Sequence record: PZ386953.1
From: a phage
Direction: 5' to 3' (one strand)
Length of the DNA stretch: 64,000 bases
Below the pieces are notes generated by a model, which saw only the letters and a list, made by a program, of their open reading frames with translations, had not been told where the DNA came from and made no database searches. Of this stretch, positions 8,024-61,371 are shown piece by piece (position 1 is the stretch's first letter; the number at the start of each line of letters is the position of its first letter). The position numbers and the translations under genes are program-made.

Positions 8024-8608
8024 ATGAAAATACTTCAAGAGTTTAAACTTTACCAACCGGGATCTGGCGAATACCACCCTAACAAGGGAACCAAGGAGCT
8101 GACCCCTCAAGAGGTTGAGGATTACACCGCATACACTGGGTATTTTTTACGTAATGATGATGGCGATTGGTATGTGCAGTCACGAACATTACGACAAGAA
8201 AATCCGGGTTGTATCTTCCTACTTGTTGACGAGAAGGGAATTCTTAAGACATCTACAGAAGAACCTGATGCCCTATGGCCTGCTCCAGGTCTTCGTGTGG
8301 TTATCGCCAAAAAAGAAGAGGTACCAGAAAACATTATGCTTCACCACGACGCTTTGCGTTTAGTTGGTGATGAATTTGTCACAGACAATGAATTCTTTGT
8401 TCAACAGGCAGAGGGTGTCATAGAGACAGAACTTGCTTGGGCTACTGCTAGAATTGGTGCCTATCAAGACATGATTGACCTTGAATATGATCTTACTGAT
8501 GACCAGAAACGTAACATCAGAGATTTGAAAATGTACAGGGTAAAACTTCTTGAAATAGATACATCTAAAGCCCCTGACATTTTCTTCCCGGAGCGACCTA
8601 CCCTCTAA
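8024..8608 (+). CDS. hypothetical protein (fibre-associated?)
   Basis: 194-aa ORF with GGAGGA RBS directly after the fibre gene. Confidence 0.35.
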   Translation: MKILQEFKLYQPGSGEYHPNKGTKELTPQEVEDYTAYTGYFLRNDDGDWYVQSRTLRQENPGCIFLLVDEKGILKTSTEEPDALWPAPGLRVVIAKKEEVPENIMLHHDALRLVGDEFVTDNEFFVQQAEGVIETELAWATARIGAYQDMIDLEYDLTDDQKRNIRDLKMYRVKLLEIDTSKAPDIFFPERPTL

Positions 8609-8619
8609 GAGGAGGTGTT

Positions 8620-8934
8620 GTGGAGTTGGATTTGGCGGCATTGTACGGTATCTGCATGGGTACCGTTGTCCCGATCTGTGTATGGGCTTTCAACCAGTGG
8701 CACACCAAATGGAAAGGCATTTCCAAGAGGTTGGATGAACTGGAGAAAGACCTCATCTTAGTGAAAAACAGTATGGTTACAAAAGATAAACTTGATTCTA
8801 TTATCGAGACCCGGTTAAGCAAGCTAGAGGCCGATATTAACGACCTTAAGCAGGATGTTAGGACAGATGTCTCCGGCATCAGAGCTGATGTACAAAAGAT
8901 TTTGCACATGCTTGTAGAGCATAGTAAAAGGTAA
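8620..8934 (+). CDS. small membrane-anchored coiled-coil protein
   Basis: GTG start after GAGGAGG; N-terminal hydrophobic segment followed by heptad-like sequence. Confidence 0.3.
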   Translation: MELDLAALYGICMGTVVPICVWAFNQWHTKWKGISKRLDELEKDLILVKNSMVTKDKLDSIIETRLSKLEADINDLKQDVRTDVSGIRADVQKILHMLVEHSKR

Positions 8935-9023
8935 ACAAAGGTCAGGACGGAAAGGACTCCGTTCTTGCATTTTGTTCACTAAAGTGTTAAAATAGTCCTA
9001 AGGAATTTTCTCAGGAGAACGTG

Positions 9024-25845: not shown

Positions 25846-26118
25846 ATGATGAAGGCATGTGGTAATGTATATTACGTCGGTGAACATGTTCAGGCAGACA
25901 GTGTGTGGAAATCTATTAAGTCCACCACTGACGATGCCTTTCTGAGTGGACTATGTTTCCCCAATCCGGGAGACATCCTCCCTCATCCTGGAGATTTTGT
26001 TGTCAACAAGATGGACGGTTATACCGTGTGCCTGATGGTTGAAAAAATCTTTTTAGACACTAGACACAATCACCGTCTTGTGTTAAAATTTCAAGAATGT
26101 AAAATGACAATTGCCTAA
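25846..26118 (+). CDS. hypothetical protein
   Basis: ATG 7 nt after GAGGG; overlaps upstream stop. Confidence 0.4.
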   Translation: MMKACGNVYYVGEHVQADSVWKSIKSTTDDAFLSGLCFPNPGDILPHPGDFVVNKMDGYTVCLMVEKIFLDTRHNHRLVLKFQECKMTIA

Positions 26119-26126
26119 GGAGACCT

Positions 26127-26155
26127 TACCGATGTCTAAAGTTACTTATCGTGCA
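26127..26155 (+). repeat. 29-bp inverted repeat, arm 2
   Basis: TACCGATGTCTAAAGTTACTTATCGTGCA spanning the start codon of 26132..26488. Confidence 0.8.
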
Positions 26156-26488
26156 GCTATTTACTGCAATGAACACCCAATCAATAATGATGGTCACTGC
26201 CTTTTTAAAGAAAATCAATTGGGCTGTATTGTCCTCCCCGATGAAGGGGAAGGTTATCTGATTGCATTGACAGGGTTTGAACCTGAGGCTCTGGAAGCCA
26301 ATCTGGACTACCTGGTAGAAGAGGGTGCTGCAGACCTGGTTGCCAATGGCCTCTCCATAAGCCTTGACGAAGTAGAGCGCTTCATGGGCAATTACCGTGT
26401 AGTGCGTGAGTTTACTATCGAGGTGGAAACTCCCGAGTGGGGTAGCCATGAAACTAATGCCGAAGAAAAAGAAGAGGAGGTAGAATAA
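26132..26488 (+). CDS. hypothetical acidic protein
   Basis: ATG after AAGGAGA; first 8 codons lie in the 29-bp inverted repeat. Confidence 0.4.
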   Translation: MSKVTYRAAIYCNEHPINNDGHCLFKENQLGCIVLPDEGEGYLIALTGFEPEALEANLDYLVEEGAADLVANGLSISLDEVERFMGNYRVVREFTIEVETPEWGSHETNAEEKEEEVE

Positions 26489-34531: not shown

Positions 34532-35857
34532 ATGAGTAAAACCAAATTAGAACTAACCTGGATAGGTAAAAACGAGCGCAAAAAGTTAGAGCCGCACATT
34601 TTGTTAGAAGATTCTAGCAAGTCTTACCACAGCCAGAAAGTGACTGAAAACGATATTTTTGATAATAAACTGATTTTTGGAGATAACTTATTAGCATTGA
34701 AGGCGCTAGAGCAAGAGTATGCAGGCAAAGTGAAGTGTGTTTACATAGACCCACCATTCAATACTGGAAGGGCTTTTGAGCACTACGATGATAGCCTTGA
34801 GCATTCCATTTGGCTGGGCTTAATGAGGGATAGGTTAGAAATAATTCGTAATCTTCTAAGTGATGATGGGGTAATATTCGTTCACTTAGATGATTGCGAA
34901 ATGGCGTATTTAAAAGTTTTGATGGACGAGATTTTTGGTCGTGCAAATCAGTTAAATACCATATCGATGACCACAAATTCCCCTTCGGGATTTAAGGCAA
35001 TAGGAGCCACAGTTTTCTCCACAGCAAACTTTTTGCTTGTATATGCAAAAGATCGCACCCAGAAACCGCTTAACAAAATCTATATACCTAAAGGGTATGA
35101 TACAGGATATAACAAATACCTATTAAACCCGGATGACCATTATAAAAATTGGACGTGGTGCGGTATTGCCGATGCGTTTGCAAAGGCCAATGGCTATAAA
35201 GATGCAAAAGAGGCCAAGAAAAAACTGCCTGATACATTCGATGATGAATTAGCACAATTCGCAATTGATAATGCAGAACGTGTATTTCAATCTGTTGCAA
35301 TCGGCGGTGGTGCTAAAATAAAGAGAAAAGAAACTATCGAGAAGTCAAAGAAAGATAGGGATAAGGTTTATGTACATCCAAATGAAGATGTTGAAGGATT
35401 TTATATCGTAAATGGTAGGCAAATGGTCTTTTACTCCAACAGGCTTTTGGAAATTGACGGTGATATGCAACCTGCGGAACTAATAACTGATGTTTGGACA
35501 GACATTAGTTGGAATGGAATAGCAAATGAAGGCGGCGTTAGTTTCAAAAATGGGAAAAAACCAGAAGCGCTTTTGAAGCGAATTTTCGAAATGTGTACGC
35601 GAGAAGGCGATTTGGTATTGGATTCATTCGGTGGTTCGGGAACTACTGCTGCTGTAGCTCACAAGATGAAAAGACGTTGGATCTCAATCGAGCTGGGTGA
35701 TCATTGTCATACCCATATTATTCCGCGCTTGGAAAAAGTGATCGATGGTGAAGATCAAGGTGGTATTTCTAAGTCTGTAAACTGGCAAGGTGGTGGTGGC
35801 TTCAGTTATTACAAACTTGCCCCGACCTTAATTGCGAAAGATAAGTCTGATCAATAA
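34532..35857 (+). CDS. DNA N6-adenine (or N4-cytosine) methyltransferase, beta class
   Basis: Motif IV IDPPFNTG precedes motif I LDSFGGSGTT. Confidence 0.7.
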   Translation: MSKTKLELTWIGKNERKKLEPHILLEDSSKSYHSQKVTENDIFDNKLIFGDNLLALKALEQEYAGKVKCVYIDPPFNTGRAFEHYDDSLEHSIWLGLMRDRLEIIRNLLSDDGVIFVHLDDCEMAYLKVLMDEIFGRANQLNTISMTTNSPSGFKAIGATVFSTANFLLVYAKDRTQKPLNKIYIPKGYDTGYNKYLLNPDDHYKNWTWCGIADAFAKANGYKDAKEAKKKLPDTFDDELAQFAIDNAERVFQSVAIGGGAKIKRKETIEKSKKDRDKVYVHPNEDVEGFYIVNGRQMVFYSNRLLEIDGDMQPAELITDVWTDISWNGIANEGGVSFKNGKKPEALLKRIFEMCTREGDLVLDSFGGSGTTAAVAHKMKRRWISIELGDHCHTHIIPRLEKVIDGEDQGGISKSVNWQGGGGFSYYKLAPTLIAKDKSDQ

Positions 35858-37070: not shown

Positions 37071-37100
37071 AGGCCCTGCCCGAAAGGGTGGGGCTTTTTG
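37071..37100 (+). terminator. intrinsic terminator
   Basis: GCCCTGCCC-GAAA-GGGTGGGGC then TTTTTG; same 22-mer at 47206. Confidence 0.7.
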
Positions 37101-37117
37101 CATTAGGAGACAGCAAA

Positions 37118-37882
37118 TTGAAATTTATCTATAAAGAACACTACCACAAAGGTGTTGTGTGGAGTCTATTTGACGGATCTGGCGGTGCAGTCATTGACTG
37201 GGCAAAAGCTGGATATCTGTGCCTGTGCTTTAACGCAGAAGGTGCTGACCACGGCAGTTATGCAGAGGTGATCACCGATCATCCCAACATTCACTATGTG
37301 GACTATTGGATTGACCCGTGGTTCCCTCAGGAAACTTTTTGCATGTATCCGGCTCCAGATTTTATTCTTGCATTTCCTCCGTGCACGCATTTAGCGGTAT
37401 CAGGTGCTGCACATTTTAAGAAAAAGCTGGCTAAGGACCCCATGATCCAAATTAATGCTGTAAAGGATGCTCGGGTTGCGGAAGAGCTGGGAGAGATTTA
37501 CGATTGCCCGTGGCATGTAGAGAATCCTGTGGGTGTTATGTCCACACTGTGGCGCAAACCTGATTACCGTTTTCACCCTTCGGATTATGGCGGGTATTTA
37601 CCGGAAGATGATGTAAACCCATGGTTTCCTGAATTTATAGCTCCACGTGATGCCTATCCAAAAATAACTTGCGGCTGGATAGGTAATGGATTTATAATCC
37701 CAGCCACAAAACCTGTCCCGCAAATAGTTGACGCGGTTAGCGGGTATTCCATGCAACACGCCAAGCTGGGTGGAAAGAGTGCAAGAACGAAGATGATTCG
37801 AAGCCTCACACCACGTGGCTGGGCAAAAGCCGTATTCCTAGCAAACGAGCCTGTAGTAAGGAGCAGAATTAATGGGAAGTAA
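37118..37882 (+). CDS. DNA cytosine-C5 methyltransferase-like protein
   Basis: Motif I LFDGSGG, motif IV PPC, motif VI ENP in canonical order; TTG start 7 nt after AGGAGA (tool GTG start lies inside the terminator). Confidence 0.45.
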   Translation: MKFIYKEHYHKGVVWSLFDGSGGAVIDWAKAGYLCLCFNAEGADHGSYAEVITDHPNIHYVDYWIDPWFPQETFCMYPAPDFILAFPPCTHLAVSGAAHFKKKLAKDPMIQINAVKDARVAEELGEIYDCPWHVENPVGVMSTLWRKPDYRFHPSDYGGYLPEDDVNPWFPEFIAPRDAYPKITCGWIGNGFIIPATKPVPQIVDAVSGYSMQHAKLGGKSARTKMIRSLTPRGWAKAVFLANEPVVRSRINGK

Positions 37883-43993: not shown

Positions 43994-44248
43994 ATGAAAA
44001 TTACTTTGAAGTCAGAATGCGTTGCAAATGACCGAGCTTTTAAAGATTGCACAGTCGGTGCAATTTATGAAGCAGAGTTTTGTGAGAACCCTCTGGTAAA
44101 AGCCCTCCTGGAAGAAGGGGCCCCTTTATCACAAGAAGAGATCGATGAGCTGGAAAACTCAGCACAGTGCCTTACCTTTAAAGATGATGAAGGAGACTCT
44201 GTCTGGTGCACTGTTAATGAAGTAGTTTTTGTAAAACCTGAACATTAA
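43994..44248 (+). CDS. small protein, paralog family 3, member a
   Basis: 84 aa; D-x-AF-x-DCT motif shared with 44312..44572. Confidence 0.4.
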   Translation: MKITLKSECVANDRAFKDCTVGAIYEAEFCENPLVKALLEEGAPLSQEEIDELENSAQCLTFKDDEGDSVWCTVNEVVFVKPEH

Positions 44249-45270: not shown

Positions 45271-45516
45271 ATGACTGAAGTAGTTGCTCGCGCAGGACAG
45301 AAAGTACGTTGTGTTGAAGTAGGTTTTGGTGGCAAAGGGTGTCAAAACTTGACTCAAGGTAAGGAATACGCTGTTATTTCTGGTGGTGGCGACGAAAGTA
45401 TTGTGTTCGAGGGCCACATCCTGGATGCTGAAAACTTTGAAATCTTTGACGACGATGGGGATCCGATCACCTGCCTGCTGGACGGGAATTGGGGAACTTT
45501 CGAAGTGATTGGCTAA
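45271..45516 (+). CDS. hypothetical protein
   Basis: 81 aa; CAGGAGA RBS. Confidence 0.4.
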   Translation: MTEVVARAGQKVRCVEVGFGGKGCQNLTQGKEYAVISGGGDESIVFEGHILDAENFEIFDDDGDPITCLLDGNWGTFEVIG

Positions 45517-48029: not shown

Positions 48030-48455
48030 ATGATCTATGAAATGCCAAAACTGATTCGTGACGATGCCCAAAACGCCCACACCTTTATCATGGGCAAGCG
48101 CATGGATATTATTTGTCATAAAGATTTCTGGGAAGGTAGTTACTTCACAGAATATTTTGGTAAACTGGATAATGGTCTGCTGATCCAGTTCTACACCGAT
48201 GCGGAAAACAATATCTGCTGGGAGTTCGAAACTGAAGATATCCATAAACTTTTCACCTTCCTAGGTATTAAGGTTGAGGCCAAGTTTGAAGAAGGCGAGT
48301 GCGACGATTGTGGATTCTACGAGGTAACAGATTTCTATCTCCCAAGTGGTGAGAACCTTTACTATGAAAGCCACTTCGGCAACTCAAATATGCCACAAGG
48401 TTGGGATGAGTTTTTTGAAATTGCGGAAGAGGAGCTGACATACCGTGATTATTGA
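48030..48455 (+). CDS. hypothetical protein
   Basis: 141-aa ORF. Confidence 0.4.
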   Translation: MIYEMPKLIRDDAQNAHTFIMGKRMDIICHKDFWEGSYFTEYFGKLDNGLLIQFYTDAENNICWEFETEDIHKLFTFLGIKVEAKFEEGECDDCGFYEVTDFYLPSGENLYYESHFGNSNMPQGWDEFFEIAEEELTYRDY

Positions 48456-48903
48456 TACTGTAGCGGGAGATTTAATCTCCCTTTTTAAGAGCGGTGCTGG
48501 TCACCTGATCCACGGTTGTAACTGCTTTCATACAATGGGTGCAGGCATAGCGAAAGATATTGCCCGTGAGTTCCCTCAAGCACTGGCAGCCGACAAAGAG
48601 ACTGCCTATGGTAATCTGGACAAGCTGGGTATGTTTTCTTGTTGGGAGCATTTTGCCAAGAACAGGGTCGTATATGGAATCAACCTGTATACCCAGTTCT
48701 ACCCAGGGCCCAATGCTGAATACTTCTCAATAATGAAAGGTTTTGAGCGAGTCAACGAGGTATTCAAAGGTGTGTCATTGCCGTTCTACATTCCTAAAAT
48801 TGGATGCGGTATTGGCGGTCTAAAGTGGGAACATGTAGAAGATGTAATTAATCTTGCAACCACAGATATTGATGTGGTTGTAGTAGAGTACAAAAAGTGT
48901 TGA
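48445..48903 (+). CDS. macro-domain-like protein (ADP-ribose binding/processing?)
   Basis: N-terminal HGCNCFHTMGAGIAKDI and later IGCGIGGL resemble macro-domain glycine-rich loops. Confidence 0.4.
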   Translation: MIIDTVAGDLISLFKSGAGHLIHGCNCFHTMGAGIAKDIAREFPQALAADKETAYGNLDKLGMFSCWEHFAKNRVVYGINLYTQFYPGPNAEYFSIMKGFERVNEVFKGVSLPFYIPKIGCGIGGLKWEHVEDVINLATTDIDVVVVEYKKC

Positions 48904-52628: not shown

Positions 52629-52710
52629 AAATCATTGACACGCTGCAAAATTTAAGTAAACTAGACACAAAAGGCGGGAATGTTTCCCGCCAGCACAAAG
52701 GAAAAAGATC

Positions 52711-53306: not shown

Positions 53307-53334
53307 TTGACAAGCTAACTTAAATCGATATAAT
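53307..53334 (+). promoter_or_regulatory. consensus sigma70-like early promoter
   Basis: TTGACA-16 bp-TATAAT. Confidence 0.55.
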
Positions 53335-53385
53335 AAGCACATAAACGGGAAAACTTCCCAGAACACACAAAAGGAGAAAAACACC

Positions 53386-53727
53386 ATGACTACTATGACC
53401 GCCTCAGAAAAAGCTATGCAGATCGCTGAACTGAAAAAACAGATCGCAGACCTTGAGAATAAGATCGATAACTTTGAAATCGACGAGGACAAGTACGACG
53501 AAAACTATGATGAATGGTTAGACGAGATCTACGGCGAAATTATGATCGGAAACATTTCTTTTCTTCCGTCGCGTATCCTCAAGGAGCTAGATCCTATCGC
53601 TTACCGCTGCGGATTTAGCGACTACATCGACAGCCTGGATATTGAGAACGATGAAGAATACCAGGAATTACAGACAGAGTTAGAAGAAGCAAAAGAAGAG
53701 CTTGCGGAGCTGGAAGAAAACGAGTAA
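53386..53727 (+). CDS. highly acidic coiled-coil early protein
   Basis: 113 aa, D/E-rich, ends EELAELEENE; consensus promoter 53307-53334. Confidence 0.5.
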   Translation: MTTMTASEKAMQIAELKKQIADLENKIDNFEIDEDKYDENYDEWLDEIYGEIMIGNISFLPSRILKELDPIAYRCGFSDYIDSLDIENDEEYQELQTELEEAKEELAELEENE

Positions 53728-53729
53728 GC

Positions 53730-53775
53730 TTATTTTTAGATGGCCTTGACACCAGGGCCATCAATAAAGTAAACT
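53730..53775 (+). promoter_or_regulatory. 46-bp palindromic promoter box, copy 2
   Basis: Identical 46-mer to copy 1, immediately after a stop codon. Confidence 0.55.
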
Positions 53776-53816
53776 TTATACTGTTAACACTGAACGAATG
53801 CATAGGAGTTAAAACC

Positions 53817-54062
53817 ATGGCAGCACTAATCACCAAATATTATGCCCCTACCAATACCAAAAGCGCCCGTATCATGGTAAAAGGCTTCGGACGTAAAAAG
53901 GTGTACACCTGGGATTATGCCTTAGACACGGAAGACAACTACACCAACGCAATGACCGATTTTATTAATGAACTAAATAAGCAGATCTTGACAAGTTATA
54001 AAGTGACCGATATTGCTTATATAGGTGAAGGCGGGATCTGTTTTGTAGGCATTGTGAAATAG
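53817..54062 (+). CDS. hypothetical early protein
   Basis: 81 aa; ATAGGAGTTAAAACCATGGC leader repeated at 58407; promoter box upstream. Confidence 0.45.
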   Translation: MAALITKYYAPTNTKSARIMVKGFGRKKVYTWDYALDTEDNYTNAMTDFINELNKQILTSYKVTDIAYIGEGGICFVGIVK

Positions 54063-54110
54063 TTATTTTTTCGGTGGTCCTGGTTGCAGGGCCATCTATA
54101 AAGATAATTT
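54062..54110 (+). promoter_or_regulatory. diverged promoter box, copy 4
   Basis: TTATTTTTTCGGTGGTCCTGGTTGCAGGGCCATCTATAAAG: same layout, degenerate arms. Confidence 0.3.
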
Positions 54111-54136
54111 ATTAACACCATGAAAGGAGAAAGTAC

Positions 54137-54490
54137 ATGATCAGCGGGGCAAGTTTTATTATTGGCGCTATTGCTACGGCTTTAATTGTAAATAAGATCC
54201 AGGATAAAAAGGAAAGAGGAAGTACCGCCCTTGCAGAATATCCATTTTGGGCATTCAACGATAACGAAGATTATATTATAAAGTATAAAAATAAAGAAGG
54301 TGACCAAGTAACACCGCGACCGATCCCGGCTTACAAAATGCAGGAAACACTATACCGCCTGAAGGCGGGGGGCGCAAAAATTGTAGACTTTTGGGGATAC
54401 GACCACACAGATCAGGAAGTTATAAAGCGCCGTATCCGGGCTATTCAGGCCAATATTGAAGTTAGCAAGGGGGGAATATATGAAAATTAA
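54137..54490 (+). CDS. membrane-anchored early protein
   Basis: 117 aa, N-terminal hydrophobic helix; GAAAGGAGA RBS. Confidence 0.45.
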   Translation: MISGASFIIGAIATALIVNKIQDKKERGSTALAEYPFWAFNDNEDYIIKYKNKEGDQVTPRPIPAYKMQETLYRLKAGGAKIVDFWGYDHTDQEVIKRRIRAIQANIEVSKGGIYEN

Positions 54491-54677
54491 TTTCGAGAAA
54501 ATTGTAAAGCGCCCTCATGATTCCGAAGAGCTGCCAGAACGCCGCCAGCGTAACAATAAACTGAATAAGCCAAAAAGGTTTGGGAAGATCTGGCGTAATC
54601 ATTATGATCGTAAATTGCCCGGCCTACTTTTGGAACGTGAACGACAGGCAGAACGATACCGCCATAAAGACAAATAA
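54480..54677 (+). CDS. small basic protein (65 aa)
   Basis: ATG after AAGGGGGG, overlaps upstream stop; terminator follows. Confidence 0.35.
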   Translation: MKINFEKIVKRPHDSEELPERRQRNNKLNKPKRFGKIWRNHYDRKLPGLLLERERQAERYRHKDK

Positions 54678-54685
54678 CAACCAAC

Positions 54686-54715
54686 TCCCCGCCATTGTGC
54701 GGGGCTTTTTATTTC
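54686..54715 (+). terminator. intrinsic terminator
   Basis: CCCCGC-CATTGT-GCGGGG then CTTTTTATTTC. Confidence 0.65.
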
Positions 54716-54836
54716 TATCCTACGAATAGCGCCCCTGGTTGGCCCTGTAAGCGCCAAAAAGGCCCCCACCTATGCAATCGCCCCCCTTTAACCTGAAAAC
54801 ATCGCCCATGGCCGTTTCATGGCGTTAAAAATATCA

Positions 54837-54864
54837 TTGACATCGTCAACAGGTTAGCTATACT
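54837..54864 (+). promoter_or_regulatory. sigma70-like early promoter
   Basis: TTGACA-16 bp-TATACT. Confidence 0.5.
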
Positions 54865-54896
54865 AACCACATCAAAGAGAGAAAGGAGTAAACGCC

Positions 54897-55157
54897 ATGC
54901 GTAAATTAAAAAATTTTGATAAAGTTGATGTTATCCTGAATAATTTTTACTACTGCAACAACAAGGCTATTTGGTGGCGTGATAGTTCCACCGATAAAGT
55001 TAAGGCGCGCTTTCTTCAAGGGCACTGGCAAGGCCGCCCAGTGATTAAAATCATGGGGCAATTGGTAGCTTTCAAAAATTGCCGCCGTGCTGATGATATC
55101 GAAGATATCTTGAACGTTTTACGCTACAACAATTTTAAAAATAGTGTTGACAAGTAA
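54897..55157 (+). CDS. hypothetical early protein
   Basis: 86 aa; promoter 54837-54864; GAAAGGAG RBS. Confidence 0.45.
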   Translation: MRKLKNFDKVDVILNNFYYCNNKAIWWRDSSTDKVKARFLQGHWQGRPVIKIMGQLVAFKNCRRADDIEDILNVLRYNNFKNSVDK

Positions 55158-55174
55158 GATTAAACAAGTATACT
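55147..55174 (+). promoter_or_regulatory. sigma70-like early promoter
   Basis: TTGACA-16 bp-TATACT, overlaps upstream stop codon. Confidence 0.5.
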
Positions 55175-55231
55175 TAATCACATAGGCGGGAAAAATTCCC
55201 GCCACCGCCGAAGAAAATAGGAGAAAATATC

Positions 55232-55855
55232 ATGACTACCGTTAACATTACCGCAGGTTACAATTTATCTTTCGACGTGCTGACCGACGAACAAAAAGAA
55301 AAAGCCGTTGAAATGGTCCGCGAAAGAGAGGAAAACAGCGGTGATAACTTTTTCGCAGAAAGCGTAATTGAATACTATAAAGAATATGTTTTTCCAGAGT
55401 ATGGCCTTGAAGATACCGAAGTACATTGGTCAGGCTTTTGGTGCCAGGGTGACGGCGCGTCAATCAGTGCTGAAAACGTGGATTTAGAAAAATTTTTGCG
55501 TAAAGTAAAGGCCCTGACCAAGTTCCGATCAATTCGTCACTTGTTCGGCACAATGCACGATGGCGAGTTATCAGCCAGTGTTGAACGCGACAAGTACAGC
55601 CATTACAGCCATGAAAACACTGTAAGCGGGTACATTGATACCACTTGGCTAGATCTGACCGCCAAACAAGAAAACAAAGTGGAAGACCTGGAAGAACTGA
55701 TCACCGAGACGGTACGGGAGCTATCCCGCAAGGTTTACGTAGACCTGGAGGAGGCCTATCTAGAACAGTTCACCGCAGAAAACCTGATCGGCCTTATCGA
55801 GGCCAATAACTGGCGGTTTGATGTCGATGAATATGGTGAGATGACTTTTTCATAA
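55232..55855 (+). CDS. acidic early protein
   Basis: 207 aa, net acidic; promoter 55147-55174 and leader hairpin 55185-55203. Confidence 0.5.
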   Translation: MTTVNITAGYNLSFDVLTDEQKEKAVEMVREREENSGDNFFAESVIEYYKEYVFPEYGLEDTEVHWSGFWCQGDGASISAENVDLEKFLRKVKALTKFRSIRHLFGTMHDGELSASVERDKYSHYSHENTVSGYIDTTWLDLTAKQENKVEDLEELITETVRELSRKVYVDLEEAYLEQFTAENLIGLIEANNWRFDVDEYGEMTFS

Positions 55856-55863
55856 ATAAAGTG

Positions 55864-55891
55864 TTGCAATAACCTAAAAACCTGCTATATT
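55864..55891 (+). promoter_or_regulatory. sigma70-like early promoter
   Basis: TTGCAA-16 bp-TATATT. Confidence 0.45.
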
Positions 55892-55945
55892 AAAACTCAA
55901 GGGGGCAAGACGTTTGCCCCAACACAAAACAAAGAGGATAACATC

Positions 55946-56326
55946 ATGAAAAACACTACCAAGGCTATTGACACCGTTATGTTTAACCTGGTTACATTCC
56001 GTGAAGATATGAAAGATCTTCCTCGTGAAACAGTGTGCGACCATATCGAAAACTATCGCAAACTAATCAAAGAGTTGCCTTTAAAACGTGATCAATATGC
56101 GGCTAACGCCATGCTTAATGCCATGATCAAAAAGATGATCCAGTGTGATTTAACCCTGGCCTATGATTATGCAGGCGGTCGTTTTGCAGTATACAATCAG
56201 CCCGTGCCCGGTATGAGCACCACCGAAGAATTGCACGCGCTCAATCTAAAACAAGACGTGTGGGATAGTATGCCTCGCGTGGTGGTATGGGTAGAAAGCG
56301 GAAAGATTTACGGCGATAATTTTTAA
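55946..56326 (+). CDS. hypothetical early protein
   Basis: 126 aa; promoter 55864-55891, leader hairpin, AAAGAGGATAACATCATG. Confidence 0.45.
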   Translation: MKNTTKAIDTVMFNLVTFREDMKDLPRETVCDHIENYRKLIKELPLKRDQYAANAMLNAMIKKMIQCDLTLAYDYAGGRFAVYNQPVPGMSTTEELHALNLKQDVWDSMPRVVVWVESGKIYGDNF

Positions 56327-56390
56327 TCAGGTAGCAGGCGGCATATTTGCCGCCTTATTGTTAATCAGAACTGTAAAAGAGGTACATAGA

Positions 56391-56762
56391 ATGGAATTTA
56401 TTATTTTGGCTGTATTGGTTGCCTTGTTTAACGCCTGGATCGCTGGCAAGATGGGAAGATCCGCCTTTTTATGGTTTATTATATCTATTTTCCTGGGGGT
56501 GGTTGCAACTATTGTATTGGTTATCCTTGCAATTGTTGACAAGGGGAATAATAGAAAGGGTAAAGTATTTTCAGACCTGTACGACGCTCAAACGTTTGTC
56601 AACGCCTATTATAGTGATCTTCCAGTCTCCCTACGCTGCAGCCTGGCACAACAGGTTTTTGATGAGGCTAAAACCAGAGATCAAGCCCATGAGATATGTT
56701 TAACTGAGGCGGATCGCCTATTTGAGAGGAATAGAAAATATGTGGGCCAACCGTTTAAATAA
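56391..56762 (+). CDS. membrane protein
   Basis: ATG after AAAGAGG; two predicted TM helices. Confidence 0.45.
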   Translation: MEFIILAVLVALFNAWIAGKMGRSAFLWFIISIFLGVVATIVLVILAIVDKGNNRKGKVFSDLYDAQTFVNAYYSDLPVSLRCSLAQQVFDEAKTRDQAHEICLTEADRLFERNRKYVGQPFK

Positions 56763-56985
56763 TGCCACGTTAATTAATCCCTTTAGTGAAGATTTGAAGC
56801 CAGCCGCCTGGCGTGACGGATTCAATAACGAACGCTTTATTTTCAGGCCTGATCTTGAGGAATTTTATAACAATGGATCGAACAACAGCGGAGATAATTT
56901 TTCTTGTGGTGTGCGTGGTGATGGTACTCCTGGGGGCCATTGTAAACCACGTCACTACTACCAGAAGGAAAGGGGGAGACGATGA
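56740..56985 (+). CDS. hypothetical protein (frame uncertain)
   Basis: ATG after GAGAGGA; TGA overlaps next start (ATGA); an alternative 41-aa TM peptide ORF exists in another frame (56873..56998). Confidence 0.3.
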   Translation: MWANRLNNATLINPFSEDLKPAAWRDGFNNERFIFRPDLEEFYNNGSNNSGDNFSCGVRGDGTPGGHCKPRHYYQKERGRR

Positions 56986-57101
56986 CAACCAAGGATAAGC
57001 CATGTACCGATAAGGTGCGCCGCGTTATGGTATGGCTTGAGATTATCGCCCTTGAAATATTGCTAGGCGTAGGGATGTACTTTATCGCTGTAAGTAACTA
57101 A
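56982..57101 (+). CDS. small membrane peptide (39 aa)
   Basis: ATG 6 nt after AAGGGGGAG; one TM helix; terminator follows. Confidence 0.35.
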   Translation: MTTKDKPCTDKVRRVMVWLEIIALEILLGVGMYFIAVSN

Positions 57102-57104
57102 GAA

Positions 57105-57134
57105 CGGCCCCCGATCATGGGGGCCTATCTTTTA
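57105..57134 (+). terminator. intrinsic terminator
   Basis: GGCCCCC-GATCAT-GGGGGCC then TATCTTTT. Confidence 0.6.
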
Positions 57135-57240
57135 AAAAAATTTTTCTTCCGTGGTGTTGCAATCCGATCCGGAATGTGGATAATAACAATCAACGGGGAG
57201 CTAATCCCCACCACCACAAAAACCAGAAAGGAGAAACAAA

Positions 57241-57441
57241 ATGAGCAACAATATCCGCGTTATTAACTTCAAAAAAGAAGAAAAAATTGCCGTGCTGATT
57301 GACGGTCAAGAAATCTTCAAGGGCGACTATGAAGATCATCAAACGGCGATTAGTATCACTCGCGTGATTGGTTACCATAATTTCTACCCCCAAGGCGCTG
57401 AGGCAGCAGTTAAACGAATCAAAGAGATTGTAGGCCTGTAA
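57241..57441 (+). CDS. hypothetical early protein
   Basis: 66 aa; promoter 57157-57186; GAAAGGAGA RBS. Confidence 0.45.
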   Translation: MSNNIRVINFKKEEKIAVLIDGQEIFKGDYEDHQTAISITRVIGYHNFYPQGAEAAVKRIKEIVGL

Positions 57442-57444
57442 AAT

Positions 57445-57490
57445 TTATTTTTAGATGGCCTTGACTTCAGGGCCATCAATAAAGTAAATT
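57445..57490 (+). promoter_or_regulatory. 46-bp palindromic promoter box, copy 3
   Basis: Same box with 3 substitutions (TTGACT, TAAATT). Confidence 0.5.
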
Positions 57491-57532
57491 TAAACCCTGT
57501 TAAAATAATCAGTGCAAAAAGGAGTAATGGTC

Positions 57533-57832
57533 ATGTTTATACCCGCCAATAATCTTTATTTCTTTGATGGTCAGATCGTAGACGGTGTGGAAGTGGAGAT
57601 CACTGGGTGCCCTGGTGGTCAGGCTATGACTTTTCGGAATAATGCCTTTGATGATTCTCGTATCGTTATGAGAATGGAAGTTACAAAGCTGGACGACAAG
57701 AAAACACTCATTGACTATTCCGTGAAAGATCATCCAGACCACCACATGATCTATGGTGATTTGTGCATTGTTGACCGTGACAAGGTGAGCGGCATTGTGA
57801 TCGCTATTGTGAACGATGTTTTCTCAAACTAA
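57533..57832 (+). CDS. hypothetical early protein
   Basis: ATG 8 nt after AAGGAG (tool GTG start is 21 nt upstream); promoter box 57445-57490. Confidence 0.45.
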   Translation: MFIPANNLYFFDGQIVDGVEVEITGCPGGQAMTFRNNAFDDSRIVMRMEVTKLDDKKTLIDYSVKDHPDHHMIYGDLCIVDRDKVSGIVIAIVNDVFSN

Positions 57833-57849
57833 TTTCAGCAGGTGATTTT

Positions 57850-58200
57850 ATGAAAGTTAAATTATATTACCTCAATGAGCTTAACCCGCTTGCACAAGTC
57901 CACGCCCTGGATAACGCTGTTTATTGTGAAAAGTCTATATACAGTGTTGAGCTTAACGCTATGCGTGAACGCCTTAAAGGCGGTTACTTTGACATCCATG
58001 CTGCAATCAACGGCCTGAATATAGAATTTATCCGCTTACGTAACAGCCGCCAGAATCTGGCAAGAATGGAACAAGATCCGGCCCACCTTCGTAAGCTGGT
58101 TATTGAAAATCATCTGATGTTTAATGCCGATGGTGATTATTACCATTTTCACCGTAAACGCTGGTACCGTAGCGGCAATATAGGAAAGAATGCAAAATAA
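57850..58200 (+). CDS. hypothetical early protein
   Basis: 116 aa; terminator follows. Confidence 0.45.
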   Translation: MKVKLYYLNELNPLAQVHALDNAVYCEKSIYSVELNAMRERLKGGYFDIHAAINGLNIEFIRLRNSRQNLARMEQDPAHLRKLVIENHLMFNADGDYYHFHRKRWYRSGNIGKNAK

Positions 58201-58236
58201 GGCCCCTGGCAGGGCCTGCAGCGATATAATCACATA

Positions 58237-58270
58237 AAGGCTATGCGGTTGCATAGCCTTTATTATTTTG
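58237..58270 (+). terminator. intrinsic terminator
   Basis: AGGCTATGC-GGTT-GCATAGCCT then TTATTATTTT. Confidence 0.65.
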
Positions 58271-58406
58271 GCGTTACAGCGGCCCCCAAGGCGCTTAAAA
58301 AATTTTTAAAGAAGTACTTGCATCAAGTCCTACAATATGGATAATAAAGGGTGTCGGGGGGCGGTGAGGCCTCCAATCATTAACCGGATAGATAGGAGTT
58401 AAAACC

Positions 58407-58691
58407 ATGGCTATTGTTACCGTTGGCGATGTAGTAGAAATGGAAGCCAAATACTTAAAAGCTGGTATGCATATCATACGGAATGATCAAGAATTGTTAT
58501 TAACCATGGTTGAATATAATCCCGGTCAGGATTATCCAAGCATTGACTACTTTTTCCAGTATGTTGATGAAGAATTAAAAGAGGATGAGGCTTATCAGGG
58601 TGAATTTTGTAATTTCTTTTGCTCTGATGAGGTTGTAAAAGTTATCTATCAACCTGGCGTACCTTTCCCGCTGCACGCTATCAATAAATAA
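58407..58691 (+). CDS. hypothetical early protein
   Basis: 94 aa; promoter-like 58318-58346; repeated leader ATAGGAGTTAAAACCATGGC. Confidence 0.45.
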   Translation: MAIVTVGDVVEMEAKYLKAGMHIIRNDQELLLTMVEYNPGQDYPSIDYFFQYVDEELKEDEAYQGEFCNFFCSDEVVKVIYQPGVPFPLHAINK

Positions 58692-58747
58692 ACCTGGCGG
58701 GGCCGAAAAGGCCCCCCAATTATGAAAATAAAGAGAGGCAAATCATC

Positions 58748-58981
58748 ATGATGGAACAAATTAAACGCGCCGAGGCTATTAATGGCAACGTGATCTATTT
58801 TGTCAGCAAAAACGAAAAAGGCGTACCCTATGCGGCGGTAATAGTACAGCCTGACGGCGATTATTGGTGCACTGTGTACGGCGCTTATTCTTTTGGGCGT
58901 CCGGTGCATGATAAAATTTTGAAAGTAGCGAACCCTACCGGGAAAAATATTACAGCAGAAAAATTTTTTGAAAATAGTTGA
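58748..58981 (+). CDS. hypothetical early protein
   Basis: 77-aa ORF after hairpin 58699-58715. Confidence 0.4.
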   Translation: MMEQIKRAEAINGNVIYFVSKNEKGVPYAAVIVQPDGDYWCTVYGAYSFGRPVHDKILKVANPTGKNITAEKFFENS

Positions 58982-59005
58982 CATGACTATATAAAACTGT
59001 AGTAT
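58978..59005 (+). promoter_or_regulatory. sigma70-like early promoter
   Basis: TTGACA-16 bp-TAGTAT. Confidence 0.45.
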
Positions 59006-59057
59006 ATAAATCAAAGGGGGCAACAAGCCCCACCAACCACAAAGAGGATAAAAAATC

Positions 59058-59237
59058 ATGGCTATTATTGCAAAGACCGAGATCGTAGGCTTAGATTCTA
59101 TTCTCCTCGCATATGAGGAAGCTATAGAAATGTATGTGGTTTCCTATGGTGAGTATATCCGTGAATATGAATCTATTGATCTAGCTTTTGAATGTTATAT
59201 TCGCCAGGTTAATAAAGCGTACGATGATTATCGTTAA
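59058..59237 (+). CDS. small protein (59 aa)
   Basis: ATG after AAAGAGGATAAAAAATC; promoter 58978-59005; below tool cutoff. Confidence 0.4.
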   Translation: MAIIAKTEIVGLDSILLAYEEAIEMYVVSYGEYIREYESIDLAFECYIRQVNKAYDDYR

Positions 59238-59328
59238 AATAGTTTGACAACAAACAACCATCTAACAAAGCATAATACATAAGGTGGTAGAATGATCCGC
59301 CACCCGGAACAAAGAAGAGGTAAACACC

Positions 59329-59574
59329 ATGAAAAGCAATAAAGGTTATAACGGTTACAAAAACAAAACTCATTGGAATGTAAGCCTTTGGATTAATAAC
59401 GATGAGTCATTGTACCGGTTGGCCCAAGGATTTATTAACGCTAATGCTAATCGTAATGATGCGGCGCGGGATATGATGCTTTTTCTGGAGCTAACCGGAC
59501 AAGATAAGACCCCGGACGGCTTCAAGTACAGCACTACGGCGATCCGTGCCGCGATGGTTGGAATGAAACACTAA
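59329..59574 (+). CDS. hypothetical early protein
   Basis: 81 aa; AAGAAGAGG RBS. Confidence 0.45.
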   Translation: MKSNKGYNGYKNKTHWNVSLWINNDESLYRLAQGFINANANRNDAARDMMLFLELTGQDKTPDGFKYSTTAIRAAMVGMKH

Positions 59575-59651
59575 AAGCACATAGCCGCCTTACCCTGGGG
59601 CTGTAGTAGCGGCCCCATGAATAAGGTTACTAACAGAAGAGAATAAACACT

Positions 59652-59756
59652 ATGAAACAGAAATTAATCGATGCAGTGATCTTGGTTATTGCCCTGGGTA
59701 TTGGCCTGATTGCAACCATGTCTAATATGATCTTGTCTTCCAACGGTATCGGGTGA
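59652..59756 (+). CDS. small membrane peptide (34 aa)
   Basis: Single hydrophobic helix; weak RBS; below tool cutoff. Confidence 0.25.
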   Translation: MKQKLIDAVILVIALGIGLIATMSNMILSSNGIG

Positions 59757-59765
59757 GGTTGGCAA

Positions 59766-59981
59766 ATGATCACTAACAAAACAGGCAAAACAGAATTTTT
59801 ACGCAACTTACAGATCGGCAAGCCTGAGATCTGGTACTGCACTAAAACACCGCGTGACGAAATGAAAGACTTCACCGCCACGCTGCAACGGGTAAAGATA
59901 TCTATCACGCAGAAAAAGGCCTTACTAGTGGTGGAAGGGGAGATCCCCCAAACCGTTGTTATAGTTGAGCGTACAGCATAG
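59766..59981 (+). CDS. hypothetical protein
   Basis: 71-aa ORF. Confidence 0.4.
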   Translation: MITNKTGKTEFLRNLQIGKPEIWYCTKTPRDEMKDFTATLQRVKISITQKKALLVVEGEIPQTVVIVERTA

Positions 59982-60072
59982 TTTAATTTATACCGATACC
60001 CGAAAATTAACCAACAAAGCATAAACAGGCGGTTACCGCCGCCTTAAACGTAGCAGAAAGAGGATAGACACA

Positions 60073-60363
60073 ATGAAAAAGATGATCGCAGTGGTTGCCC
60101 TGGTTGTTGGACTTAGTGCGCCTGCAATGGCTAATGAGCTGGCAAAAGAGGTTAATCTAACGGATATTCATGCCGTCAATCGAATCGGGGTTACTTATCG
60201 CTTATGCCTTGCCACTAAAACTTTTAATGACGGTACAACAGAGTACTACGGGTTTGAGGGTATCCGGTGCGGTGAGCTTGCTCGCGACCTTAAGGAAGAT
60301 CCAGACCTGGAAGATCTGCCCATCACCGTAAACGGTAAAGCTTACGTAAACCGCCAACAATAA
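60073..60363 (+). CDS. secreted/periplasmic small protein
   Basis: Signal peptide MKKMIAVVALVVGLSAPAMA; AAAGAGGAT leader. Confidence 0.45.
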   Translation: MKKMIAVVALVVGLSAPAMANELAKEVNLTDIHAVNRIGVTYRLCLATKTFNDGTTEYYGFEGIRCGELARDLKEDPDLEDLPITVNGKAYVNRQQ

Positions 60364-60379
60364 GTAAGGGAGATGTAAA

Positions 60380-60571
60380 ATGAATACTGAACAAGTTAGA
60401 AAGGTATTGGCGGTACTGCGTTATCATAATCATAGAAAGGTCATAGACGATCCTGATTATGTAGATTCAAGCCTGGAAGAAGACACGCTACAAGCTATCA
60501 GCCATATGCAAGAATTGCTTAAGCGCATGACAGAGAAAAACCGACCGGACTACATAGGGGGTAAAATATGA
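60380..60571 (+). CDS. hypothetical protein
   Basis: 63 aa; AAGGGAG RBS. Confidence 0.4.
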   Translation: MNTEQVRKVLAVLRYHNHRKVIDDPDYVDSSLEEDTLQAISHMQELLKRMTEKNRPDYIGGKI

Positions 60572-60879
60572 TCGCTATTACGCCAACCGTTTTAGATTGG
60601 TATCGGCAACGCATAGCTCCTCCGCTGGCTATCTTCAAAGATGCGGAATCAAAACAACGCCGGATCTCAATACATGAGATCATCAACCTTAACGCTGGAG
60701 GCACACCATACCGCCCAGGGCCTGGCCGTGAGATGGACAATACGTTAGCGATCCTGAAGATACGCCGTAAACGGTCCTCCCTTACGCTGGACTCCTTACA
60801 CACAATGCAGTCTCCGTTCCAGGTGACCGGGAAACGGATCGCCAGGTCCTGGACAAAGGCCAATGATCGGACCGTATAA
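60568..60879 (+). CDS. hypothetical basic protein
   Basis: 103 aa; ATGA overlap. Confidence 0.4.
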   Translation: MIAITPTVLDWYRQRIAPPLAIFKDAESKQRRISIHEIINLNAGGTPYRPGPGREMDNTLAILKIRRKRSSLTLDSLHTMQSPFQVTGKRIARSWTKANDRTV

Positions 60880-60967
60880 ATAAAAAGTGCTTTGGTACTG
60901 ATTTTGGGGGTTGACTTGTTCGGCCCCTTTTGCTATTCTTATTAAACGGGCGGCACTTGGGAACAGG

Positions 60968-60990
60968 GGGAGACAATCACCGGGCCTGCC
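60968..60990 (-). repeat. 23-bp GC-rich element, copy C (inverted)
   Basis: GGGAGACAATCACCGGGCCTGCC is the exact reverse complement of copy A. Confidence 0.75.
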
Positions 60991-61098
60991 TGTCATATAA
61001 GAACTATAAAAACCGTTGACATCTGCCAGGTGGTGGGGTAACATTTATCTTGAAGGGGCAAAAGTGCCCACACAACAACCAGAAGAGAGGAAAACATT

Positions 61099-61371
61099 AT
61101 GTCAAGCTGGATTAATCAAGAAGTCGAATCACGTTTTAATGCTATTTGGGATCTCATCGAAAAAGAGGACGGAACATCAAGCCCTTATCTCAATAATCTT
61201 GAATTCCATTTCGTGGAAGCGATGAACGCAGAACATGATCACGAAGGTGGTGCGGATGAGTTCGCTAAAGGGTATGGCTTCAACAATGCCAACGAAATGA
61301 TCGAGGCGGTTGTACTCCAGGCTGAGGAAGATTATCAATTAAAAACGCTTGAATTCTGCCGCCGTAAGTAA
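61099..61371 (+). CDS. acidic early protein
   Basis: 90 aa, D/E-rich; promoter 61005-61034 and leader hairpin. Confidence 0.45.
   Translation: MSSWINQEVESRFNAIWDLIEKEDGTSSPYLNNLEFHFVEAMNAEHDHEGGADEFAKGYGFNNANEMIEAVVLQAEEDYQLKTLEFCRRK

Follow-up and report, generated by a model that had tools for sequence, protein, structure and literature searches.

Three acidic, putatively early proteins of an rV5-like vequintavirus: mutually unrelated, and only one with the charge of T7 Ocr

Introduction

Do several strongly acidic small proteins encoded in the same region of a phage genome make up a set of DNA mimics, or are they separate proteins that have little more than their charge in common? The question is raised by a 64,000-nucleotide stretch of phage DNA (sequence record PZ386953.1; hereafter, the window), in which an initial annotation had singled out three early proteins of 113, 207 and 90 amino acids (aa) as strongly rich in aspartate and glutamate (D/E), with acidic C-terminal runs, and as reminiscent in composition, though not in recognisable sequence, of Ocr-type anti-restriction proteins. 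The model of this class, Ocr (gp0.3) of phage T7, is a DNA mimic that inhibits type I restriction-modification (R-M) systems and BREX (bacteriophage exclusion). Here, we analyzed the gene status, charge, families, genomic contexts and upstream sequences of the three proteins, together with published plating data for related phages. The three proteins are unrelated to one another and to Ocr, ArdA, ArdB and YeeU, and their treatment as one candidate class is therefore not borne out. The evidence tips slightly towards three unrelated early accessory proteins that likely act on host or defence proteins, and away from a single class of DNA mimics.

By sequence identity, the window can be assigned to an rV5-like Vequintavirus. 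Escherichia phage JLBYU08 (Vequintavirus murica) matches the 9-kb stretch around the three genes at 98.1% identity, and further relatives match it at 93-95% (LL12, Murica, rV5 variants and BASEL phages such as MaxTheCat and AlexBoehm). Between 50 and 64 kb, the window consists of a series of small + strand open reading frames (ORFs) whose annotation is nearly all hypothetical, and the remainder holds tail-fibre, lysis, rIIA/B and replication genes. The rV5-like phages are among the commonest coliphage isolates and are used in therapy cocktails, and none of their roughly 100 small early genes has a known function.

The three genes and their charge

The three ORFs lie, as initially annotated, on the + strand at 53386-53727 (113 aa), 55232-55855 (207 aa) and 61099-61371 (90 aa). 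They correspond to rV5 gp187/ORF192, gp180/ORF185 and gp162/ORF167, respectively, and match over their full length the profiles of PHROG 9294 (E 3e-53), 5162 (E 2.5e-87) and 7287 (E 3e-47), all three of unknown function. The ratios of nonsynonymous to synonymous substitution (dN/dS) against the rV5 orthologues are 0.17, 0.07 and 0.05 in the same order. On account of these profile matches and ratios, the three ORFs are genuine genes.

Calculation of the isoelectric point (pI) confirmed that all three proteins are acidic: the 113-aa protein has 35 D/E against 9 lysines and arginines (K/R; net charge -26, pI 4.05), the 207-aa protein 44 against 20 (net -24, pI 4.45) and the 90-aa protein 19 against 7 (net -12, pI 4.40). 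However, the acidity is exceptional only in the first of them. In a ranking of the 240 window ORFs of at least 60 aa, the 113-aa protein comes first with -0.23 charge per residue, the runner-up having -0.16, whereas the 90-aa protein is 5th and the 207-aa protein 10th. The acidic C-terminal run is likewise a property of the 113-aa protein (net -9 in the last 20 residues), the corresponding values being -4 for the 207-aa protein and 0 for the 90-aa protein, which ends in RRK. Unflagged ORFs of similar acidity start at 26111, 48030, 43994, 45271 and 58407. Four of these + strand ORFs (26111-26488, 43994-44248, 45271-45516 and 58407-58691) carry -0.12 to -0.16 charge per residue, which equals or exceeds the acidity of the 207-aa and 90-aa proteins; that at 58407-58691, a further acidic early ORF, encodes 94 aa with a pI of 4.25 and belongs to PHROG 12610 (dN/dS 0.13).

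The abundance of similarly acidic ORFs in the window is what would be expected if the acidity of the three proteins were incidental and they were ordinary early proteins with host-takeover or accessory functions, such as the inhibition of transcription, division or proteolysis. We regard this explanation as possible, if rather doubtful; the clear outlier status of the 113-aa protein in the charge ranking argues against it.

The 113-aa protein

Seventy relatives of the 113-aa protein were found and all 70 family members have a pI below 5, a universal acidity which again is difficult to reconcile with an incidental charge. The family alignment reveals a conserved core of about 45 aa, YDxxLDEIYG-x-I-x-G-x-F-x-x-SRILKELDPIAYRCGFSDY, in which eleven columns are conserved at 90% or more (Y41, S62, L65, E67, D69, P70, I71, A72, Y73, C75 and D79). 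In the vequintavirus form, this core is flanked on its N-terminal side by one heptad helix and on its C-terminal side by another that is very acidic, both predicted to be coiled-coil-like, so the predicted architecture is that of a small alpha/beta core with two flanking heptad helices. Other forms of the family are 64-aa proteins made up of the core only and proteins with zinc-ribbon-like CPICG tails. The core was found in Vibrio, Pseudomonas, Proteus, Providencia and Microbacterium phages. In two members of the Autographiviridae, Proteus phage PM16 and Pseudomonas phage Lepni01, the core homologue is gene 2 (with its own annotated terminator) and gene 4, respectively, in both cases at the extreme left early end of the genome, and this leftmost early position is that of Ocr in T7. 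The genome position supports an immediate-early, host- or defence-directed role of the family, without establishing mimicry.

The resemblance to Ocr in composition was upheld for this protein. T7 Ocr has 117 aa, 34 D/E, a net charge of -28 and a pI of 4.05; the corresponding values here are 113 aa, 35, -26 and 4.05, and both proteins are acid-tailed. The resemblance does not extend to the 207-aa and 90-aa proteins, which have about half this charge density and no acidic tail, and the charge signature of Ocr (very high negative density together with an acidic tail) is thus present in the 113-aa protein only. The absence of recognisable sequence similarity was also confirmed. None of the three proteins has a Pfam hit at E<=0.1, the scan of the 113-aa protein giving only sub-threshold coiled-coil noise, and hhalign comparisons with T7 Ocr returned probabilities of 0.1% for the 113-aa family profile and 0.2% for that of the 207-aa family. 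An Ocr-like fold was also looked for and not found.

These results bear on the proposal that the 113-aa protein is functionally analogous to Ocr, being an elongated and probably dimeric acidic DNA mimic that fills the DNA-binding groove of type I R-M enzymes. On this proposal, a protein made first after injection would be the reason why vequintaviruses resist EcoKI and EcoCFT_I, as described below. The near identity to Ocr in size, charge, pI and tail and the Ocr-like position of the core homologues in Autographiviridae genomes speak in favor of such an analogue. Nevertheless, we consider it improbable: sequence and profile similarity to Ocr is lacking, neither the Pfam Ocr nor the ArdA family was hit, the most conserved part of the protein is a small core which includes non-acidic residues and suggests a specific protein contact, and the 64-aa core-only homologues do without the long acidic helices. 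Among the elements considered here, only these helices could plausibly imitate nucleic acid, and for this reason the 113-aa protein is the best of the three candidates for a vequintaviral type I counter-measure, a role to which we give little credence overall.

The 207-aa protein

A word-indexed search recovered 47 relatives of the 207-aa protein, and a profile search covering 1.84 billion cluster representatives (clusters at 50% identity) recovered 7,427 clusters at E<=1e-3 and 4,667 at E<=1e-10. The protein is thus a marker of a very large family of mobile-element proteins which has no Pfam model, no solved relative and a misleading database name. An alignment of 140 diverse members shows the invariant motif SGFWSQGDGA ... 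YSHENTV (QGDG / YxHE), with G58, Q72, G73 and G75 invariant and G68, F69, D74, A76, Y125, H127, Y169 and L172 conserved at 97% or more. Because this invariant and mostly non-acidic motif dominates the family, it suggests a defined site rather than a generic acidic decoy; the Q-G-D-G and Y-x-H-E elements might form a ligand, catalytic or partner-binding site. Acidity is nevertheless widespread in the family, with 93% of members having a pI below 5 and the median net charge lying between -18 and -20. On helices 1 and 2, the alignment has acidic columns spaced i/i+4/i+7 (positions 20, 27, 31, 35 and 43, 47, 51), and the acidic helix faces that they would form may serve as a secondary interaction surface.

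Comparisons with known families were negative. The Pfam scan of the 140 members gave no recurring family, the 207-aa family has no NCBIfam model, PDB sequence match or solved-fold match, fold comparison of the protein with known mimics showed no similarity, and the ArdA profile (PF07275) hit neither the three phage proteins nor the 140 relatives. The domain is also found embedded in a 1,479-aa Fic-containing multidomain protein. In addition, it is circularly permuted in two proteins of 658 aa and 775 aa (P0259 and P0263), in which the C-terminal half (R..YxHENTV..IYxxLE..NEYxF) precedes the N-terminal half (FxxLxxxAKEKA..SGFWSQGDGASF); the latter protein also has a motif that, judged by eye, is possibly ParB-like.

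On 106 plasmids, most of them alphaproteobacterial, relatives of the 207-aa protein carry the RefSeq name "antitoxin of toxin-antitoxin stability system". Two of these plasmid proteins matched the window at 55409-55819 in tblastn searches (E 1.5e-8 and 7e-8), and full-length homology, including the SGFWSQGDGA and YxHE motifs, links the phage protein to this family. In all three plasmid neighbourhoods examined (n=3), the gene lies in the same co-directional cluster, followed downstream by strawberry-notch helicase, toprim and DUF2493 genes. Upstream, the cluster holds ParB (two of the three) or SSB, DUF932 and RadC (one of the three), and then a coupled partner of about 138 aa. This partner (8604-9023 in plasmid L002, 8577-8993 in L010 and 7589-7999 in L014) has no Pfam hit, and it is conserved and translationally coupled to the 207-aa family gene by an 8-nt overlap. 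One plasmid of the three encodes ArdC (ArdcN plus zincin, E 1e-43) 5 kb upstream of the family gene, one has an Antirestrict gene (PF03230, ArdB/KlcA, E 1.7e-37) immediately downstream of it, and one has a Phd/YefM gene in that place. As evidence from context, this is good support for a role of the family in establishment or anti-defence, which the phage protein might exert through its Q-G-D-G loop and Y-x-H-E motif.

A more specific proposal would make the 207-aa protein, in place of the 113-aa protein, the anti-restriction factor, belonging to a new phage and conjugative-element family of such factors, acting either by mimicry through its acidic helix faces or through the QGDG/YxHE site. It can draw on the plasmid genes that adjoin ArdB/KlcA and cluster with ArdC, ParB and SSB, on the presence of the domain inside the large Fic-containing protein, and on the family-wide acidity with its positionally conserved stripes. 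However, proximity is not function, and the same clusters hold replication, partition and toxin-antitoxin genes; together with the predominance of non-acidic residues among the invariant positions and the lack of fold similarity to known mimics, this makes an anti-restriction factor very unlikely in our view. If it were true, it would provide a function for a family whose more than 7,000 clusters extend over phages, conjugative plasmids and large multidomain proteins. With any function assigned to the family, thousands of genes in plasmids and phages would be better annotated.

The database names suggest instead an antitoxin that neutralises a host or plasmid toxin. Besides the annotation strings in JLBYU08 and the RefSeq plasmids, the Phd/YefM gene next to the family gene in one plasmid points in this direction. 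Against it, neither PF06154 nor any other antitoxin family of Pfam was hit by the phage protein or its 140 relatives, no NCBIfam model matches, and no toxin partner is conserved alongside the gene in the phage or in two of the three plasmids. Regarding membership of the YagB/YeeU/YfjZ family (PF06154) in particular, we found no profile match, no matching fold and no adjacent CbtA-type toxin gene. The name has probably spread from a neighbouring gene, and we find an antitoxin hardly credible.

The 90-aa protein

Close homologues of the 90-aa protein are vequintaviral. Genes encoding 35-50% identical proteins were found by tblastn in a 45-kb coliphage, in UPEC06, in T1-like Citrobacter and Salmonella phages and in a 165-kb myovirus, and the rV5 record notes a similarity of the 90-aa homologue to a hypothetical protein of RB49. 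The protein had no Pfam, NCBIfam or PDB match, its similarity to Ocr being checked by Pfam only. Among its close relatives the acidity is not conserved (pI 4.2-6.6, net charge 0 to -14), as would be expected if its charge were incidental. From its distribution, the 90-aa protein is a small accessory gene product shared among enterobacterial phage groups, and it gives no clue to a mechanism.

Early-expression cassettes

Upstream of each of the three genes we found a near-consensus sigma-70 promoter, a short GC hairpin in the leader and a GGAG-type ribosome binding site (RBS), all on the + strand. The 113-aa gene is preceded by a perfect promoter (TTGACA-16-TATAAT, 53307..53334, 12/12 consensus match) and, between promoter and RBS, by the hairpin GGGAAaacTTCCC in the 5' untranslated region (5'-UTR; 53346..53360, fold -5.5 kcal/mol). 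For the 207-aa gene, the promoter is TTGACA-16-TATACT (55147..55174, 11/12) and the 5'-UTR hairpin GGCGGGAAAAATTCCCGCC (55185..55203, -14.6 kcal/mol); for the 90-aa gene, they are TTGACA-17-TAACAT (61016..61044, 10/12) and GGGGCAAAAGTGCCC (61055..61069, -8.8 kcal/mol). In the rV5 record, sigma-70 promoters are annotated upstream of the matching genes (P192, P186 and P168): P192 precedes ORF 192, the 113-aa homologue, and P168 precedes ORF 168/167, which include the 90-aa homologue. Early expression of the three genes, as assumed in the initial annotation, is plausible because of these near-consensus promoters, both here and in the rV5 annotation; a literature look-up for transcript data found none. 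The perfect promoter of the 113-aa gene is in addition a point in favor of its product being an Ocr analogue.

Counting these three cassettes, the arrangement is found at 52635-52700, 53307-53376, 55147-55225, 58978-59050 and 61016-61095 in the window, in the order sigma-70 promoter, about 10 nt, short GC hairpin (e.g. GGCGGGAAnnnTTCCCGCC), ACACAA-rich leader and GGAG RBS.

Further observations were made around these genes. A basic 81-aa early ORF at 59329-59574 (+) matches DUF7249 (E 7e-13); few other early ORFs of this region have a Pfam family at all. The fifth of the unflagged acidic ORFs, at 48030-48455 (+), encodes a very acidic protein of 141 aa (31 D/E, net -21, pI 4.21) and overlaps the start of a macro-domain protein gene at 48445-48903 (+; PF01661, E 1e-5). 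Since macro domains remove ADP-ribose, this pair could be another counter-defence module. Finally, some 17-22 phage records of the MG0656xx series that bear the label of Campylobacter jejuni phages show 92-100% identity to the present E. coli vequintavirus region, and these labels are probably due to mislabelling or contaminated isolates.

Type I restriction phenotype of vequintaviruses

The BASEL paper calls the Vequintavirinae "exceptionally susceptible" to R-M systems (PMC8594841). Its raw plating data (PMC8594841, S1 Data and S5 Table; phages grown on a restriction-less host) do not agree with this description throughout. They include the vequintaviruses Bas57-59, which carry the three flagged genes. 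Their efficiency of plating (EOP) was 0.06-0.83 on EcoKI and 0.22-1.0 on EcoCFT_I (PMC8594841), with 9-15 EcoKI and 4-6 EcoCFT_I sites in their genomes (PMC8594841), while in the same assay Bas01, with three EcoKI sites only, had an EOP of about 1e-4 on EcoKI (PMC8594841). The EOP of Bas57-59 fell to about 1e-4 to 1e-3 on EcoRI, and no plaques were obtained on EcoRV or on the type III system EcoCFT_II (PMC8594841). A type-I-specific counter-measure in the vequintaviruses is plausible because plating on the two type I hosts is near normal despite the sites, with EcoRI, EcoRV and the type III system restricting strongly. In the window, 9 EcoKI sites were observed versus 7.9 expected, and EcoKI sites are therefore not avoided. 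The literature search found no paper naming a type I counter-measure of vequintaviruses.

These raw data give the anti-restriction hypothesis a phenotype to explain, a type-I-specific resistance that sits in the published BASEL data without mention in the text of the paper (PMC8594841). For this resistance, an early protein with Ocr-like charge is an obvious and cheaply tested candidate. Resistance to two type I systems combined with sensitivity to types II and III is the pattern expected of a general type I inhibitor, and resistance that does not stem from site avoidance is a further point in favor of an Ocr analogue.

In the same data set, the phi92-like phages Bas60-62 are also barely restricted by type I systems, the EOP of both groups taken together being 0.06-1.3 (PMC8594841), and EcoRI and EcoRV hit both groups strongly (PMC8594841). 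The two groups differ on EcoCFT_II, where the phi92-like phages plate at 0.06-0.56 and plaques are abolished in the vequintaviruses only (PMC8594841).

Discussion

Taken together, these results lend a slight preference to the view that the three proteins are separate accessory proteins. Under this view, each of them would be made immediately after DNA entry from a separate cassette with a sigma-70 promoter, a 5'-UTR hairpin and an RBS, the early region being transcribed by the host RNA polymerase. Most likely, the three proteins would then act on host proteins, stoichiometrically or enzymatically, in host takeover or counter-defence. The 113-aa protein, helical and with Ocr-like charge, may bind and block a conserved host or defence protein, and its core of about 45 aa is found in many unrelated phages, among their earliest genes. 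Anti-restriction by any of the three proteins is possible, and DNA mimicry a hypothesis.

Several points weigh against this preferred view. The analysis shows that the genes are real, how acidic their products are, which families and genomic contexts they belong to and that they lack homology to known mimics; every functional statement made here on the three proteins, including any target, is one that we infer. High acidity alone is common, several window ORFs equalling the 207-aa and 90-aa proteins. The context used for the 207-aa protein comes from alphaproteobacterial plasmids whose proteins are only about 30% identical to that of the phage, and the window lacks the conserved partner gene that stands upstream of the family gene on the plasmids. 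Regarding the phenotype, Bas60-62 resist type I systems and yet appear to be without detectable homologues of all three proteins, as judged from organism and identity counts of tblastn searches; the phenotype may therefore be due to a factor that both groups have elsewhere in the genome. Lastly, an N6/N4 DNA methylase is encoded at 34532-35857 (+; PF01555, E 6e-42). A second ORF in the replication module, where both lie, is annotated as a cytosine methyltransferase in JLBYU08 (37088-37882, +) and gave no Pfam hit. The two ORFs may provide another route to R-M evasion.

Some of these points bear on the rival explanations as well. The apparent absence of the 113-aa gene from type I-resistant phi92-like phages counts against its product as an Ocr analogue. 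If the acidity of the three proteins is incidental, type I resistance would have to come from the N6/N4 methylase, from a virion-packaged protector resembling Dar or from another early gene; the presence of the methylase and the same phenotype in the phi92-like relatives fit such an origin. Dar of phage P1 is a virion-packaged protector, and a protector of this type is a candidate for the factor behind the type I resistance. However, a methylase acting at specific sites would probably not protect against two type I systems of unrelated specificity and yet leave the EcoRI, EcoRV and type III sites open.

It is tempting to speculate that one of the proteins, most likely the 113-aa protein or alternatively a member of the 207-aa family, is a new type I inhibitor structurally unrelated to Ocr, ArdA and ArdB. 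The chances of this are small in our estimation, but such an inhibitor would explain the near-normal plating on type I hosts despite the 9-15 EcoKI sites.

Comparison with known systems

The cassettes upstream of the three genes recall the PeSL (promoter-early stem-loop) cassettes of T4-type phages, reportedly described by Arbiol and colleagues in 2010 and said to have been proposed as drivers of modular gene shuffling. In both cases, a sigma-70 early promoter and a short GC stem-loop stand before small accessory ORFs, in many copies and in a variable region. The present phage belongs to a lineage other than that of the T4-type phages.

Regarding the 207-aa protein, the occurrence of its domain within multidomain proteins of 1,479 aa (Fic-containing), 658 aa and 775 aa resembles the "polyvalent" proteins of phages and conjugative elements, reportedly described by Iyer and colleagues in 2017, and the nearby plasmid ArdC gene has the zincin domain typical of such proteins (MPTase-PolyVal). 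The 207-aa family differs from them in that no Pfam LPD family recurs in it, LPD39 being found in one of the 140 members (E 0.008). With the YeeU/CbeA antitoxins (PF06154), the protein shares the name given to it in JLBYU08 ("YeeU-like antitoxin"). The setting is similar, too, as YeeU-type genes in the CP4-type islands of E. coli lie downstream of RadC and antirestriction genes. Unlike these antitoxins, the 207-aa protein has no Pfam, NCBIfam or fold match that would place it among them, and the phage has no adjacent toxin gene. ArdA (PF07275) and ArdB/KlcA (PF03230) share with the 207-aa family the plasmid establishment clusters and early expression, the latter being predicted for the phage protein, and ArdA is acidic too.

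The closest comparison is that of the 113-aa protein with T7 Ocr. They differ in sequence and in expected structure: hhalign gives the pair a probability of 0.1% and Pfam no hit, and Ocr is a compact all-helical dimer, whereas the 113-aa protein is predicted to form two heptad helices around an alpha/beta core. Both are alike in length, D/E content, net charge, pI and acidic C-terminal tail. They are alike, too, in their setting, as Ocr is expressed from a strong host promoter at once on entry, a strong promoter of this kind is predicted for the 113-aa gene, and homologues of its core stand leftmost in Autographiviridae genomes.

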